From a virus (Duplodnaviria > Caudoviricetes), in the IMG/VR virus record IMGVR_UViG_3300030330_001389, positions 1 through 41,116 of that record: a DNA stretch of 41,116 nucleotides; one strand, given 5' to 3'. A program made the translations under genes and the position numbers. The notes beneath the pieces were generated by a model that saw only the letters and a list, made by a program, of their open reading frames with translations, searched no databases and had not been told where the DNA came from. Shown one piece after another: positions 20,575 to 29,688 of this stretch. The number at the start of each line of letters is the position of its first letter. The first letter of the stretch is position 1.

Positions 20575-22491
20575 CTATCTCCAATTATCTAAATCCATAT
20601 TACTTGTTTCGTACCCTGTAAAACTAGGATTGTAATCGTACCCTAGTTCTGCAAAGCGTTCTTTTTGCATACGCCTAATTGCTCTCATTGGAAACCAACT
20701 AGCCATAACTATATCTGTTTTTGTACCTATTGTTTTGCTTTTATTTTTAGCAGAACTAAAATACACTAACTGACTTGTATATAAGTTTACCTTTTCTTGT
20801 GCTTGAAAGCTAAGATATGGCAAAGAAATATTTTTTTCTTGAAACATTGGTCGCATAGCTGTAACACCATATAAAGGGTCAAATTTATTTTTAAATGTTT
20901 CGTGACCCTCTAAAAATATTCCATGTTTAGATGCAAAATCTCTAATACTTCTATCTTGTCTTATTGCTTTTTGAAATCCATTTTCTTCTATAACCCAATG
21001 TGACAAATTGTATTTTAACCACCATTCTTTAATAATATCTAATGCTTGTGGAATACCTCCACCTAGACTGTTGTTCATATCTACCATGTTTAATTTATTT
21101 TCTACTGGTTCATATGCCCACAAAAATGCAGCTTGATAACCTGTAGATGCAGGGTCTAATCCTGCTATTAATCTTGTACCATGTGGTATATGTCCTATGT
21201 CACGCTTTTGGTCACGACACTCTTCTATTTCTACTCTGTCAAATAAAGCAAGACCATCTGGCATAGCTACATTTAGATAAACCATTTCATATATTGCTCT
21301 ACCACCTGTAGTTTCTGCTGCTCTTTTTCTATCCATTAACCATTTGTAAGTTCTTTTACCAGACCACAACATACAATCTATATGTTCATCTTCGTTCCAG
21401 TCAGGTAAATTACAAGCTGTGTCGTGTGCTTCTTCTACAATTGTTTTCCAAGATTCGTTATCTAACAAATGAGAATATAAATCATCATAATGTTGCCTAG
21501 AACCAATTACAACCATAGCTGTATGTTCTTCTTTACGACTAGACAATGTTGTTGTCCACCAACTTCTTGTGTTTTCTCTTGATGCAGGTTGCATAGTAGA
21601 AGTATGGTCCTCAATGTCATCTGCAATAATTAAGTCACAATCACGAGAAAGTATTTTACCACCACGACCAATGCCTACCATTGTTGGTGATTTAATACCT
21701 GTAACTGTTCTAGTGCCTACAGTAAAACCACTTTGTGACCAGGACTTACCTGTTCTTGTTGTAGGTTTAAATTTAGGTCCTGGTCCACATATTTCTTCTA
21801 TTAACAATTCGTTACTTTCTAGTTGGTCAAGTACAGAACCTATTGCATTCTTTGCAATTTCTTCGTTACCGCCAACCCACAAAATACGAATGTTAGGTTT
21901 TGTGCATATGAGCCACACAGCAAAATGTATTAATAAATCTGTTTTACCATGTCGTGGAGGTGACAGTATCATTTGTTGGTCGCCATTTTCTATAGCATCT
22001 AAAATAGAGTTAATCCACTTAATATGAAAATCTGGTGTTTCGTATGATTCTCCTGTTTCTGTTTGAAAATATCTATCTCTAAATTTACTAAAACTTTCTA
22101 ATGATTTTTCTGCAACCTGCGGTAGTTCCCATTTATCTTGTGCAGCTTTTGTTTCTAAATCTTCTATGTATGCGTTGTATGCCATAGATACAGCAGCAAC
22201 AGTTGTTCCTAATATTTTTGCTACATCTGTTAATGTATTTTTTTCTTTAAGTATTTCTTCTGCTAAACCAGATTCAACAATGTCGTTGTAAACTTTACCT
22301 CTGCGTGATTCAACATTTTTACTAGGTATAGATAATTTTTTATCTTCTTGTTTCCATTCTATACCTTTGTCTTTAGCCCTTTTCTTTTGCATTTTAATTC
22401 TGTTAGAACATCTATCGCTACAAAATTTTGACCTGCCTTTTGGCAATACTCTATGACATCCTCCTGCGTAACATAATTTATTTTTTTCCAT
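20575..22491 (-). CDS. terL: Terminase large subunit with N-terminal Zn-finger and HTH extension
   Basis: Walker A SPPRHGKT, Walker B LIIADDIED, coupling motif GSRQHYDDLY, RNase H-like GLDPAS...IEENGFQ...TDIVMA. Confidence 0.92.
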   Translation of the reverse strand: MEKNKLCYAGGCHRVLPKGRSKFCSDRCSNRIKMQKKRAKDKGIEWKQEDKKLSIPSKNVESRRGKVYNDIVESGLAEEILKEKNTLTDVAKILGTTVAAVSMAYNAYIEDLETKAAQDKWELPQVAEKSLESFSKFRDRYFQTETGESYETPDFHIKWINSILDAIENGDQQMILSPPRHGKTDLLIHFAVWLICTKPNIRILWVGGNEEIAKNAIGSVLDQLESNELLIEEICGPGPKFKPTTRTGKSWSQSGFTVGTRTVTGIKSPTMVGIGRGGKILSRDCDLIIADDIEDHTSTMQPASRENTRSWWTTTLSSRKEEHTAMVVIGSRQHYDDLYSHLLDNESWKTIVEEAHDTACNLPDWNEDEHIDCMLWSGKRTYKWLMDRKRAAETTGGRAIYEMVYLNVAMPDGLALFDRVEIEECRDQKRDIGHIPHGTRLIAGLDPASTGYQAAFLWAYEPVENKLNMVDMNNSLGGGIPQALDIIKEWWLKYNLSHWVIEENGFQKAIRQDRSIRDFASKHGIFLEGHETFKNKFDPLYGVTAMRPMFQEKNISLPYLSFQAQEKVNLYTSQLVYFSSAKNKSKTIGTKTDIVMASWFPMRAIRRMQKERFAELGYDYNPSFTGYETSNMDLDNWR

Positions 22492-22573: not shown

Positions 22574-22717
22574 CTATTTTTTTTTGCGTTTGGGTAGTTT
22601 TTTAATTTTGCCATTGTGTGTTCTAGCAAATCTATGTGTTTTAGTTTCCATACTAGGTATAAGTGTTCCACTATAAGTTTTGCCACCCCACTTCCAACTA
22701 ACTTTTCTACCTGCCAT
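22574..22717 (-). CDS. 47-aa basic protein
   Basis: MAGRKVSWKWGGKTYSGTLIPSMETKTHRFARTHNGKIKKLPKRKKK; TAATG coupling. Confidence 0.7.
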   Translation of the reverse strand: MAGRKVSWKWGGKTYSGTLIPSMETKTHRFARTHNGKIKKLPKRKKK

Positions 22718-22893
22718 TATTTACCTACTTTCTTTTGTGCGTTTTTGTGTGCTTTAGTAAATGAAGTACCTCTTTTCATAGAGTTAGTCATAAACTGTAT
22801 ATGTTTTTTTGTATGGTGTTTAGCGTGTTTTTTCATAGTTGCCTGTTGTCTTTTAGTCAACTTAGATACATCAACACCTTTAATTTTTACCAT
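22717..22893 (-). CDS. 58-aa basic His/Lys-rich protein
   Basis: MVKIKGVDVSKLTKRQQATMKKHAKHHTKKHIQFMTNSMKRGTSFTKAHKNAQKKVGK; overlaps upstream stop. Confidence 0.7.
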   Translation of the reverse strand: MVKIKGVDVSKLTKRQQATMKKHAKHHTKKHIQFMTNSMKRGTSFTKAHKNAQKKVGK

Positions 22894-23144
22894 GCTTTAC
22901 AACTCCAATATCTAGGCGTAGTTTTATCAGTGGCAGTATCACATTTGTGTCTAGCACGAAATGATGCTCTAGCTTCTTTGTTATTTTTTCTAATTTTCAT
23001 GTTTGGGTCACCAAACATAACCTTTTTAACTTTGTCACCATCTTTAACATACACAACTGATTTTTTACGACCATGACCTGGTTCACCTTTTTTAATTGCT
23101 CTAGGTGAATTTAAAGTTACAGTCTTACCCTGATATGTTGCCAT
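22887..23144 (-). CDS. 85-aa basic phage protein
   Basis: KVMFGDP...RASFRARHKC...YWSCKAW motif, a type common in aquatic phages. Confidence 0.8.
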   Translation of the reverse strand: MATYQGKTVTLNSPRAIKKGEPGHGRKKSVVYVKDGDKVKKVMFGDPNMKIRKNNKEARASFRARHKCDTATDKTTPRYWSCKAW

Positions 23145-23254
23145 TACAATTTCTTTCTTCTTTTGTTATCTCTTAATTTTTTAAAATCAGCACCTGTAAT
23201 TTTATCAAAAGGTTTTGCTTGTTTAGCAATTTTCTTTTGTTTAGGTGATAACAT
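23144..23254 (-). CDS. 36-aa basic protein
   Basis: MLSPKQKKIAKQAKPFDKITGADFKKLRDNKRRKKL; TAATG coupling at both ends. Confidence 0.7.
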   Translation of the reverse strand: MLSPKQKKIAKQAKPFDKITGADFKKLRDNKRRKKL

Positions 23255-23325
23255 TAGTAACCCATTCTTTTACTCTTGCGTTTTGCAGAGTATCTCTTTT
23301 TTTTCTTACCTGGTTTATTAGGCAT
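23254..23325 (-). CDS. 23-aa protamine-like peptide
   Basis: MPNKPGKKKKRYSAKRKSKRMGY; AGGAG SD; first gene after the promoter. Confidence 0.65.
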   Translation of the reverse strand: MPNKPGKKKKRYSAKRKSKRMGY

Positions 23326-23352
23326 TTCTATCTCCTGTTGTTGCTTATTGTT

Positions 23353-23361
23353 ACTATAACA
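23353..23361 (-). promoter_or_regulatory. Extended -10 promoter for the packaging operon
   Basis: TGTTATAGT on minus strand. Confidence 0.55.
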
Positions 23362-23384
23362 CAAAACTCCACCGAAGTGGAGTC
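23362..23384 (-). terminator. Intrinsic terminator
   Basis: GACTCCAC-TTCG-GTGGAGTT followed by TTGTG; C(UUCG)G loop. Confidence 0.65.
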
Positions 23385-23540
23385 TTGTCGTACAGTATGT
23401 CCATTACTGTTATGAAAGAAAAAAAATAAACTTAAATCAATCACATAATCACAAACGCTATATGATGAAAAGCATACTTTCTTTTCTATTAGTTATAGAT
23501 ATTTATTTATAACTAAAACTTAGGACTTTCCTAAGTTAAA
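23362..23540 (-). ncRNA. Putative sRNA A (about 175 nt)
   Basis: TATAAT at 23549-23544; 5' hairpin AACTTAGGA/TCCTAAGTT; second hairpin TAGTTATA/TATAACTA; U-rich linker; terminator. Confidence 0.4.
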
Positions 23541-23571
23541 AATATTATAACGAGTGTTTTGCGGTTAGTGT

Positions 23572-23717
23572 AAAAAAAATTTTTTTTATTAGCTGTTTGT
23601 ACAGCAACCCCTGCTGTTGCCAGTAGGGGTTGTACTATACACAAACAAAGAAAGGAGGGCTATGAGTTAAGCACATGTTCCAGAAGGAACGAATCACTGC
23701 TCATGCCTTTCTTGTTT
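23572..23717 (-). ncRNA. Putative sRNA B with anti-SD tract (about 140 nt)
   Basis: TGTTATAAT at 23730-23722; contains CCCUCCUUUCUUUGUUUGUGUAUAGU; 3' hairpin with GCAA loop. Confidence 0.45.
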
Positions 23718-23755
23718 AATTATTATAACATAAATTATATTAATACAAATAAAGC

Positions 23756-23822
23756 TGCAGGGTTTCTGTGTGAATATGCGTAGGCGAAAGGAGGAAACTC
23801 CTACTATAACAAAAACCCTGCA
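23756..23822 (+). ncRNA. Branched stem-loop element
   Basis: TGCAGGGTTT/AAACCCTGCA outer stem; inner GTAGG/CCTAC or GGAG-GAAA-CTCC. Confidence 0.35.
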
Positions 23823-24112
23823 CTTAAATAATAGCATTTTTAAAGTAAGGTGGTATAGTAGAAAAACAAGCAGAGGTTTCTTCTTGCTTTTAGAAAAGGA
23901 ATCTTGACAATAAACACAGCAAACAAAGTGGATTAGCAGGACCATGGTAACTAGGGTGATAGCCTATTACTTCACATATATTTATTTGTTACTAATTTTA
24001 GTTCATTCTGGTTTGGGAGGGAGTGACACAGGGTTAGCACCACTATTCTTTTCTTTTATAAGTGATTAAAGATACTTACTTTATAAGTTACAATTACTAG
24101 CAATTAGGTACA

Positions 24113-24308
24113 CCACTATATGTAGTACCTTTATATAGAGTACCCCTTAACAGCATATATTTAGAGGGTGTACACACACACACAAGGCACCCCACATTTA
24201 ACCCCCCTATATCTTGTATATCCCATAAAACTACTATATATTGTACTACCATATGTCGTGGTATTGCGTACATACATACACTATATGTGGTAGTACTACA
24301 TCTAGTAT
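24113..24308. repeat. Array of six imperfect palindromes resembling NrdR boxes
   Basis: Cores CTATATGTAG 24116, CTATATCTTG 24207, CTATATATTG 24234, CCATATGTCG 24249, CTATATGTGG 24281, CTACATCTAG 24296. Confidence 0.6.
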
Positions 24309-24439
24309 GTATCAATATGTATACCTTTTGTTTCTAAACTGCGGGGTGGTGTGCTAACTATCAATAAGTAGAATCCTGGTAACAATAGAAGAACAACACA
24401 CACAGATAAGCCCAGTATTACTTAGGTTATTTTAAATAC

Positions 24440-24468
24440 TTGACAAGATATTAGCTATGTTGTATAGT
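24440..24468 (+). promoter_or_regulatory. Early promoter P1
   Basis: TTGACA-17-TATAGT. Confidence 0.8.
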
Positions 24469-24498
24469 TCTTTAGACAAACAAATTGATTGGAGAATA

Positions 24499-24888
24499 AT
24501 GAAAGAAATTAAGTATGGTAAGACAACAGTATTAGCAACTGCAGTATTACTAAGAACAGTAAGAGAAAATCTATCACAACTAGAAGAGATGAACTGGGAA
24601 AAAGGTAAGCCAGAGAATCATAACTTATTAACTAGCCATGAAGATTTTTTCAAGCTAACACAACTATCAGATAGTCTATTAGACCTTATAGGTATTGATA
24701 GTAATTTTGTAGATGAAATCACTAGAGATGGTGGAGATATTAGCGTTAGTATTTATGACCATTCTGGAGATGATACTGGATTAAGTCCGCAGTTATTTAC
24801 AACTGGAATCTATAGAGATAGTGAACTAACTAGCGACTGGTTAGGATGGTATCGCGATACACAAGAAGCGAAGAAAGAAGAAGAGTAA
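24499..24888 (+). CDS. Early hypothetical protein (start revised from 24457)
   Basis: GGAG SD before ATG 24499; the track start lies inside the promoter. Confidence 0.7.
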   Translation: MKEIKYGKTTVLATAVLLRTVRENLSQLEEMNWEKGKPENHNLLTSHEDFFKLTQLSDSLLDLIGIDSNFVDEITRDGGDISVSIYDHSGDDTGLSPQLFTTGIYRDSELTSDWLGWYRDTQEAKKEEE

Positions 24889-24901
24889 GGTATTTGACAA
24901 G

Positions 24902-24930
24902 TAGGGGAAGAAATAAAAACTCTTCCCCTA
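24902..24930. other. Perfect 10-bp hairpin between early genes
   Basis: TAGGGGAAGA-9 nt-TCTTCCCCTA directly after a TTGACA; no U-tract. Confidence 0.5.
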
Positions 24931-24962
24931 TAGAGCAAACATAAGAAATTGGAGGATAAATA

Positions 24963-25277
24963 ATGGTAGATTGGAAAGATGTTTTAACTAAAGCTGAATT
25001 GCGTTTAGCTGAATTAGAACAAACACGATTAGAAGTAGAAACAACTAATCAAGCACCTTATCTTAAGGTTACAGTACCTTATGAAACAGAGTGTATTGAT
25101 TGTGAAGTTAGCTACACAGACAGAGATGTTGAAAACGAAATTGAAGTCTATGAAGTTAATAAAATAGAAAGTGAATATCTATGCATGGATTGTGGATTTA
25201 CTTATGTTGATAAGGAAATATCTAACACAAAAATTCGTATTGATATGATTAAGGAAAAACTAAAATTTGACAACTAA
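24963..25277 (+). CDS. Early zinc-finger protein
   Basis: GGAGG SD; CIDC...CMDC flanked by coiled-coil. Confidence 0.7.
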   Translation: MVDWKDVLTKAELRLAELEQTRLEVETTNQAPYLKVTVPYETECIDCEVSYTDRDVENEIEVYEVNKIESEYLCMDCGFTYVDKEISNTKIRIDMIKEKLKFDN

Positions 25278-28390: not shown

Positions 28391-28617
28391 TGTCATTCTT
28401 AATAGAATATTATGCCTATGTTATGGTCAGCATATTGACAGTTGTTGTAATACTAGGACTATTTACTGTATACATAGCGGTTATGACACTATGGGAAAAC
28501 AGACCATATTTTAAAGTAAGAGTAAGAGAAGAAGAACGACTTAGACATTTTAAATTGTCAGATGAGTTTTTAAAAGAAATAAATAAAATACAAAAGGAAA
28601 GTGGTATAGATGAGTAA
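28390..28617 (+). CDS. Membrane protein
   Basis: N-terminal hydrophobic helix. Confidence 0.65.
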   Translation: MSFLIEYYAYVMVSILTVVVILGLFTVYIAVMTLWENRPYFKVRVREEERLRHFKLSDEFLKEINKIQKESGIDE

Positions 28618-28822
28618 AGATACTGAACTATCTATTAAGTTAGGAGAAGTCCAGGACTTGATAGAAAAAAACAACACAGATAAAAAAATATTATTAGAGA
28701 AAAGAAATATTATTATTAAGCAATTAAAAAGAGCAGGATGGTCAGCAATTAGAATAGCAAAACATATTGGCATGACTAGAGATTTTGTTTACAAAGCAAT
28801 AGACACAGTAGAGGAGGACTAA
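28610..28822 (+). CDS. HTH DNA-binding protein
   Basis: GWSAIRIAKHIGMTRDFVYKAI. Confidence 0.75.
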   Translation: MSKDTELSIKLGEVQDLIEKNNTDKKILLEKRNIIIKQLKRAGWSAIRIAKHIGMTRDFVYKAIDTVEED

Positions 28823-29688
28823 TGGCTAAGTTTAACTTAGATAATTACGAAACAGTAGAAGAACGACTAAAGAAATTCTGGAAAGATTATCCTAATGGAA
28901 GAGTAGAAACAGAAGTTGTACACATAACTGAAGATGGAACATGTGTCACAATTAAGTCTGCTATCTATAAAGATATGAATGATACGCATCCAGTAGCAAC
29001 TGGTATTGCACAGGAAACTAAAGGACAAGGCGGATTTGCTAACGCTGATGCCTGGATGGAAAACTGCGAAACGAGTTCGCTAGGCAGAAGTTTAAGTAAC
29101 TGGATGTATCAAGGTGCTAACAAACCTAGACCAAGTAGAGAAGAAATGTCTAAAGTTAAGGTAGAAAAAAAACCAGTTAAACAACCTACTAAAAAAGAAT
29201 TAGAAGCTATGAACAAAGTAATTGATGAAATGGTAGCTGAACCAAAGAATGCAACTGGTGATGTAGGTAAGCAACTTAATCAATTACTTGCAGCTATGAT
29301 TCCTGATGAATCATTACGACAAACAATTAAAGGTAATGCCTACAATGAGCTAGTCAATAATGGTTTAGCAGACAAGGATATTAAATTGTGGACCAAAGAA
29401 AACATGGATGTCTTTATGACTAGAGCAGAGGACATGTTAAAGATGCTAGATAACAATACAAACGATACAGATATAGTAGAAGATGTATTTGGTGAGGTAA
29501 CAACAGCAGTTGTTAGAGCATGTCCAGAGTGTAATAGTCCAGACTGGATAGAGGACAACAGGGAAAAAAAGGCAAGTGATGAACGCTTTTCAAAGATACC
29601 TTCATGGAGTTGCAGCACATACCAAGGCAACAATGGTTGCGGTTGGACTGCATGGGGAGATACTGATTGTCCAAAAGAGTGGCTATAG
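28822..29688 (+). CDS. Single-strand annealing protein (Rad52/Sak-like) with C-terminal Zn ribbon
   Basis: YETVEERL...ATGIAQE...ENCETSSLGRSL; CPEC...WSC...GCG. Confidence 0.65.
   Translation: MAKFNLDNYETVEERLKKFWKDYPNGRVETEVVHITEDGTCVTIKSAIYKDMNDTHPVATGIAQETKGQGGFANADAWMENCETSSLGRSLSNWMYQGANKPRPSREEMSKVKVEKKPVKQPTKKELEAMNKVIDEMVAEPKNATGDVGKQLNQLLAAMIPDESLRQTIKGNAYNELVNNGLADKDIKLWTKENMDVFMTRAEDMLKMLDNNTNDTDIVEDVFGEVTTAVVRACPECNSPDWIEDNREKKASDERFSKIPSWSCSTYQGNNGCGWTAWGDTDCPKEWL

Follow-up and report, generated by a model that had tools for sequence, protein, structure and literature searches.

NrdR-box-like sites at a predicted genome end in a clade of phages without a recognisable ribonucleotide reductase

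Organisation of the locus

The window, by which we mean the whole 41,116-bp viral record analysed here (99% complete, 32.5% GC), has genes for a terminase, a capsid protein of SU10 type, an exonuclease and a holin. Its late genes occupy the minus strand, and a short early arm runs along the plus strand. The terminase large subunit (20575-22491, minus strand) carries an N-terminal Cys4 finger and a predicted helix-turn-helix. Upstream of it lies a run of very small basic ORFs (22574-23239) common to other marine viruses; contigs from RNA libraries cover these small genes and the early ORFs, and not the array described below. A conserved non-coding element follows at 23926-24037, with both end motifs found in 39 of 51 loci. 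It contains a 4-bp hairpin (23952-23966) with compensatory changes at two pairs among 34 distinct rows, carries a CACAGGG word and has no Rfam match; over 23000-25000 as a whole, Rfam returns nothing near the gathering score. The early promoter P1 (TTGACA-17-TATAGT) lies at 24440-24468 on the plus strand.

Between this element and P1 lie the six 10-bp cores that an earlier note had described, all of them where it placed them (24116, 24207, 24234, 24249, 24281 and 24296) and with the 32-bp (fourth to fifth) and 62-bp (third to sixth) spacings that it gave. It did not mention that two of the cores stand 42 bp apart, that doublets at 15 bp occur, that a degenerate seventh core is present at 24131, or that the array lies at a predicted genome end. 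Box A1 (24113-24128) has the core CTATATGTAG, 31 bp before a conserved anchor, TTAACAGCATAT..TTTAGAGGG (24147-24168, plus strand), that ends in a G-run and is a predicted terminase signal. Box A2 (24128-24143) holds the seventh core and is placed by the anchor-aligned columns of 48 loci; it has lost C4 and T11, and relatives usually have an intact core at this position, 15 bp after A1. Beyond the anchor follow B1 (24204-24219), B2 (24231-24246), B3 (24246-24261), B4 (24278-24293) and B5 (24293-24308). The cores of B1, B3 and B4 form a chain, 24207 to 24249 (42 bp) to 24281 (32 bp), so that B3 belongs to both pairs, while B2, 15 bp before B3, and B5, 15 bp after B4, are without a partner at a spacing that NrdR is known to use. 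As the earlier note stated, the array does not overlap P1, which begins about 130 bp beyond the last box.

The window has the gene layout of Streptomyces phage cluster BF (Beephvirinae: Manuel, FlowerPower, Percastrophe), which also provides the closest cultured terminase and portal. The portal matches 29 Streptomyces phage records and two of ct2KA10, and no others among 50,697; the best terminase matches fall in the same group. In Manuel the terminase lies 661 bp from one end and the early genes enter from the other, and the window shares this arrangement of a BF-like terminase near one end with early genes running inward from the other. A nucleotide search of cultured phages gives short matches to one small gene and nothing else. 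We consider the phage likely to be a marine, BF-like podovirus with tiny ocean actinobacteria as hosts.

Likeness to NrdR operators

The NrdR box is described as a 16-bp partial palindrome with conserved C4, A6, A8, T9, T11 and G13 (PMC13584703), and NrdR requires two boxes separated by spacers of 14-17 or 24-27 bp (PMC12051234), equivalent to 30-33 or 40-43 bp from start to start, hereafter permissive pairs. Single boxes are bound 530-1000-fold worse (PMC12051234). Published work describes tetramers loaded with dATP and ATP that bind box pairs and kink each box by about 90 degrees, and the C..G frame of the box is reported as needed (PMC9110341). All six conserved positions are present in all six window cores. 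The stretch between C4 and G13 is 75-100% AT in five of them and 62.5% (5/8) in the core at 24249, which is borderline against a threshold of about 63%; across relatives, 191 of 194 sites have at least 6/8. Box B5 is identical at 14 of 16 positions to box 2 of E. coli nrdEF as listed in Table 1 of PMC13584703.

The pattern C(T/C)A(T/C)AT(A/C/G)TNG has ten distinct sites in the window, six of them within 190 bp. Its 13 strand matches compare with 4.5 +/- 2.5 in shuffled sequence (13 reached in 2 of 100 shuffles), a count that is not independent evidence because the pattern was fitted to these very sites. A matrix built from literature alone, the ten published boxes of PMC13584703 Table 1, ranks 24116, 24281, 24207 and 24296 first to fourth among all 16-mers of the genome. 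Its best two permissive pairs are 24249+32 and 24207+42, the weaker box scoring 12.0 bits in each; the next best pair reaches 5.0 bits, and 200 shuffles give a mean of 5.9 and a maximum of 11.0. With a matrix of likely-host boxes the same pairs again come out as the top two, at 9.4 and 7.1 bits, the better of which only equals the shuffle maximum of 9.44.

The likeness to NrdR boxes that the earlier note had proposed is thus supported by the motif positions, the pair spacing, clade-wide conservation and the nrdR gene of the likely host, the last two of which are described below. The array resembles bacterial NrdR operators (E. coli nrdAB, nrdHIEF and nrdDG; S. coelicolor nrdAB and nrdRJ; the long-spacer sites of Streptococcus) in its 16-bp partial palindromes and in pairs 31-32 or 42-43 bp apart (PMC13584703, PMC12051234). 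It differs from them in standing at a predicted genome end of a phage without an nrd gene, and in having six to seven boxes that include 15-bp doublets; whereas NrdR operators overlap promoters upstream of RNR genes, the putative boxes of the window lie off the promoter.

Conservation and spacing across relatives

We assembled loci from 80 terminase relatives, 80 anchor matches and three later additions; 96 had the anchor and enough flank, and 51 were left after removal of near-copies. When the distal A box is aligned on the anchor with no motif filter (48 loci, two skipped), the columns C4, A6 (98%), A8, T9, T11 and G13 are fixed and variation falls at the positions that NrdR leaves free. A counterpart of A1 is found at -31 to -34 from the anchor in most relatives. 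T10, present in all host boxes, occurs in 5% of phage cores, and T14, dispensable for NrdR in vitro, is kept in 99% of them.

A permissive pair is present in 39 of the 51 loci and absent from 12, and in 38 a pair stands at exactly 31/32 or 42/43 bp. Among 24 distinct gap arrangements, 18 hold such a 31/32/42/43 pair against 6.8-8.4 expected when the gaps other than 15 are redrawn (0 of 20000 draws), and the wider range of pair spacings gives 19 of 24 against 12.0-14.4 expected (p 0.002-0.029); since the arrangements share ancestry, these p-values overstate the effect. The common gaps other than 15 are 16, 17, 27, 28, 31 and 32, the values that yield 31/32 or 42/43, and two-turn pairs are absent from the pattern. 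By site, 93 of 215 belong to a permissive pair and 122 do not.

The commonest unit is a 15-bp doublet, which is all that the terminase side holds in 28 of 51 loci; the proximal doublet holds a constant place, near -32/-17 relative to the anchor. In all 14 loci where the terminase side holds three or more boxes, the predicted repeat contains fewer than two; of the remaining 37 loci, 32 have at least two inside it. Two or three events probably account for this complementarity.

The array occurs only where the terminase is at least 78% identical to that of the window, and all rows that carry it fall in a single clade (SH-aLRT 100; quick tree of 49 rows, with L080 truncated). Where the terminase is 51-73% identical, no more than two cores occur within 260 bp, and one locus alone has a pair. 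This locus, from a sister clade (L292, terminase 54%), has a well-formed 31-bp pair about 155 bp after the anchor, possibly an independent gain. The terminase of another locus, L081, looks chimeric: it is 73% identical to that of the window overall and has the N-terminus and end region of the sister type. L081 and four further sister-clade loci (L295, L324, L362 and L366) carry repeated palindromes with CCGAC/CAGAC arms after the anchor, near early genes, which are probably sites of a different regulator.

Related elements are found elsewhere in these genomes. Two loci (L048, L051) have a 15-bp core doublet 351-375 bp after the anchor, in an operator-like position downstream of the early promoter and ahead of the first ribosome-binding site. 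A second intergenic cassette, found 1.1-2.1 kb into the early arm in nine loci (L021, L042, L045, L048, L078, L079, L156, L166 and L333) and not in the window, combines a terminator, ATAGAGC..TTTA repeats, a solo core, GTTTAAAC and a promoter, and is possibly an origin or regulatory module; its solo core is conserved in 11 of 22 loci examined. Palindromes of the GTTTAAAC type also occur near the anchor in 18 of 51 loci (for example L037, L045 and L078; 31 against 9.8 expected), in many cases at loci without the inner box cluster. We considered WGTTTAAACW as a host regulon and dropped it, as each host genome holds 3-9 copies, below the control.

The array straddles a predicted genome end

We infer a genome end at the array from comparison with cluster BF, in which the terminal repeats of three genomes measure 276, 253 and 264 bp. 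Read in the orientation of the window, BF ends carry ..TT-GGGGACT just before the cut, are cut right after the G-run, have TTAAC and a C-run about 22 nt inside, and stop right before TGTAC. Similar, though not identical, words lie in the window at 24147-24168 (the anchor), at 24190-24207 and at 24318. The second of these, the C-box CCCCACATTTAACCCCCC (plus strand), is the counterpart of TTTAACAACCCC, 22 nt inside the BF right ends; from the G-run to TTTAAC is 28 nt in the window versus 25 nt in BF. The third opens a far boundary element (24318-24350, plus strand) made up of a (T/G)GTAC-type word, an A/T tract and a G-run. The distance from anchor to TGTAC stays near 170 bp throughout the 51 loci, with or without intervening boxes.

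On this basis we predict a direct terminal repeat of about 147 bp (24171-24317), its left edge at 24171-24175 and its right edge at about 24317, possibly up to 24350. Five cores would fall inside this repeat and A1 just outside, on the terminase side. The prediction draws on BF end homology, on module length and, weakly, on read depth in one low-depth run (X9), in which a separate contig spans 24171-24374 at depth 6.4 against 3-3.8 in its neighbours; the boundary near 24170 had been set before this contig came up. Contigs from four other runs (X2, X3, X4 and X6), which come without local depth figures, pass through the predicted end, and IMG/VR contig ends show no pile-up there.

The BF repeats share with the predicted repeat similar words at both boundaries and a richness in ANATNT (9, 9 and 5 copies in the three repeats, less than one expected), and a C..G frame surrounds one of these 23. 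They differ in length, in having no NrdR pairs (best about 3 bits) and in their proteins, which are 21-27% identical to those of the window. Part of the likeness to NrdR boxes is therefore a habit of the wider family.

A likely host with nrdR and a paired-box RNR operator

An Actinomycetota MAG (G001) contains two relatives (54-57%) and a gammaproteobacterial MAG a third; terminase homologues across the host order occur in G001 alone among 65 genomes. The family of G001, with assemblies of 0.6-1.1 Mb and 32.6% GC, fits the description of Ca. Actinomarinales (PMC7771536), which points to an Actinomarina-like host family. The gene whiB, considered as a host marker, is absent from the window and from three complete relatives.

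Of 61 genomes in this family, 52 have nrdR and 53 have RNR. One box pair precedes 27 of 30 RNR loci, at 31 bp in 24 and at 30 bp in three, and the five genomes checked hold one to three permissive pairs each. The RNR itself comes as a protein of about 835 aa (835-856 aa, 5 of 30 loci) or of about 1100 aa, both mostly behind a similar promoter and box pair, which suggests a class replacement. In the host-family NrdR the DSR and RRRR motifs are retained, and its alignment with the E. coli protein is broken only by a one-residue gap that follows the linker region. S. coelicolor NrdR is reported to bind 26-27 bp spacers only at 3.5-4.4 uM, and the one-residue gap suggests that the host-family protein may tolerate four-turn spacing better. 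Boxes from E. coli and from S. coelicolor are each bound by the NrdR of the other species (PMC13584703).

We further note, in 4 of 51 loci (0.3 expected) and not in the window, a GAAC-N4-GTTC palindrome that directly follows the array at about 150 bp from the anchor. It is nearly identical to the one at the host lexA-nrdR loci, and we take it for a LexA-type box from its likeness to actinobacterial SOS boxes. Its presence ties the clade to such a host and places a second host-type operator at the same end.

Absence of RNR and phage-coded candidate binders

Many marine phages secure dNTPs through an RNR of their own. RNR and DNA polymerase families have no match in the 41 and 46 ORFs scanned, nor does RNR in a six-frame scan of the window, which agrees with the earlier note that this near-complete genome has no nrd gene. 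RNR is likewise absent from 22 of 22 related records in the array-bearing clade and from 27 of 27 in the array-less sister clades, and RTPR from 18 virus records. An RNR on contig C45 of G001, taken for that of an array-less phage, was dropped since the phage contigs are C30 and C36. The absence of RNR is thus a family-wide trait that does not discriminate array-bearing from array-less phages, and an anti-correlation between array and phage RNR, which the earlier note suggested as a check, could not show among these records, all of which lack RNR.

The main phage-coded candidate binder of the cores is the terminase large subunit. No separate small subunit is recognised, and its N-terminal 135 residues, with the Cys4 finger and helix-turn-helix, may represent a fused one; they are 62-82% identical inside the array clade and 31-33% outside. 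A fold search of this region gives weak helix-turn-helix matches and none at E <= 0.001. Two other candidates were rejected. An early HTH protein (28610-28822) occurs, among the fetched loci, in the window only. The Zn ribbon that ends an annealing-protein-like ORF (28822-29688) aligns to NrdR with an HHalign probability of 12%, and in 6 of 15 homologues it is replaced by another C-terminus while the array stays; the C-terminal domain of this ORF is swapped among relatives between a Zn ribbon and a helical form.

What reads the array

We think that NrdR probably binds the array. Several features count against this: the 15-bp doublets, which one NrdR tetramer cannot span, the solo cores, the 122 of 215 unpaired sites, the rarity of T10 beside a retained T14, the weak binding of long spacers by S. 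coelicolor NrdR and the unframed inner hexamer of the BF repeats. The doublets and solo cores are accommodated if the cores are instead sites of the terminase N-terminal domain, wrapping the end for cutting or packaging and resembling NrdR boxes by convergence on a bendable palindrome, since this would require no NrdR geometry. The lock of the doublet on the anchor, the confinement of the array to one terminase clade with its own N-terminal 135 residues and the inner hexamer that BF repeats hold outside the NrdR frame fit such a role too. It leaves unexplained, however, the 31/32 and 42/43 spacing without two-turn pairs, the exact NrdR degeneracy and the solo cores 1-2 kb from the end. Moreover, the end landmarks common to sister clades and BF (anchor, G-run, TTAAC-C-run, TGTAC) are other elements and more natural terminase signals; the first part of the anchor is kept in sister clades that have no array. 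The fold search of the domain also gave no significant match. We regard a terminase reader as a serious candidate, though a less likely one than NrdR.

The earlier note favoured a decoy, in which multiplied genome ends soak up NrdR, derepress the host nrd operon and provide dNTPs for a phage that lacks RNR. All support for NrdR binding counts here as well, as do the few pairs per host genome, the doubling of boxes inside the terminal repeat in each genome and the presence of a pair on either side of the cut, as if presence alone mattered. The sister clades, however, lack both RNR and the array, and a sponge would not need a proximal doublet locked in position to the predicted cut. NrdR is described as binding at high dATP only (PMC9110341), and should release unaided once replication drains dNTPs. 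In an illustrative calculation built on assumed numbers, about 10 genomes are required to titrate 10 tetramers, and 100 tetramers are too many. The decoy function thus finds no specific support and we regard it as unlikely. The note's secondary ideas, gating of the genome end and repeats read by the terminase, fit the location at the predicted terminal repeat better.

Very unlikely, in our judgement, is a reader that is some other host protein, or no reader at all for homogenised repeats, including back-to-back -10 hexamers as RNA polymerase bait. Two host genomes do share a solo ACTATATATAGT at a matching intergenic position, between divergent genes that are presumably cytochrome oxidase genes, and the perfect core amounts to two opposed TATAGT hexamers. 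Cores without TANNNT on either strand are, however, as frequent as chance (29 of 194 against 33 expected), so that the -10 bait shows no enrichment, and the remaining host matches of the ACTATATATAGT 12-mer are near control counts. That variation is limited to free positions among terminases only 78% identical argues for selection.

Our own reading, held tentatively, is that the six sites are host NrdR operators within the predicted genome-end module that act on phage DNA, and not mainly by titration. When host dNTPs are in surplus, NrdR would dock beside the terminase cut and fold the phage end into a U-turn, which would make end handling, whether protection, repeat duplication or a packaging switch, depend on dNTP status. 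Titration affecting the one nrd operator of the host would come late, as a side effect. A plausible history is that the bendable ANATNT repeats found family-wide acquired, in this clade, the C..G frame along with spacings of three or four turns.

Two known systems offer parallels. CtrA-site clusters in the repeats or gap regions of Alphaproteobacteria phages, described under 'lytic deferment', are likewise host regulator sites in terminal repeats that read host state (PMC9437464). Those are promoter sites with shown binding, whereas the putative regulator here is a dNTP sensor, the candidate sites of which flank a predicted cut. The DnaA-box array of T5 (Davison, bioRxiv 10.1101/866236) is similar in its ordered boxes for a host DNA-metabolism protein, its non-coding terminal region and its proposed action on DNA ends; it differs in the protein and in having a repeat of several kb that is injected in two steps. 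Here DnaA boxes show no enrichment (6 against 4.2 expected).

Implications for the BF-like clade

The predicted ends delimit the terminal repeat for a large clade of uncultured BF-like phages. In the literature searched, where matches were judged mostly by titles and the opening lines of abstracts, we found no paper that describes NrdR boxes in phages. If NrdR is indeed recruited or sequestered by non-coding phage DNA, this would be a new route of dNTP supply, and would give NrdR a role outside nrd promoters, for which we found no precedent in the published literature searched. It is a more doubtful proposition that in this clade of abundant marine actinophages the bendable elements of the terminal repeat have become true NrdR operators that serve twice, for end licensing and for derepression of host RNR. 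Were this dual use true, NrdR would act as a bending protein, gated by nucleotides, to license end processing, and its capture as a repressor would switch on host RNR as genomes multiply; 200 bp of DNA would then take the place of a phage RNR gene.
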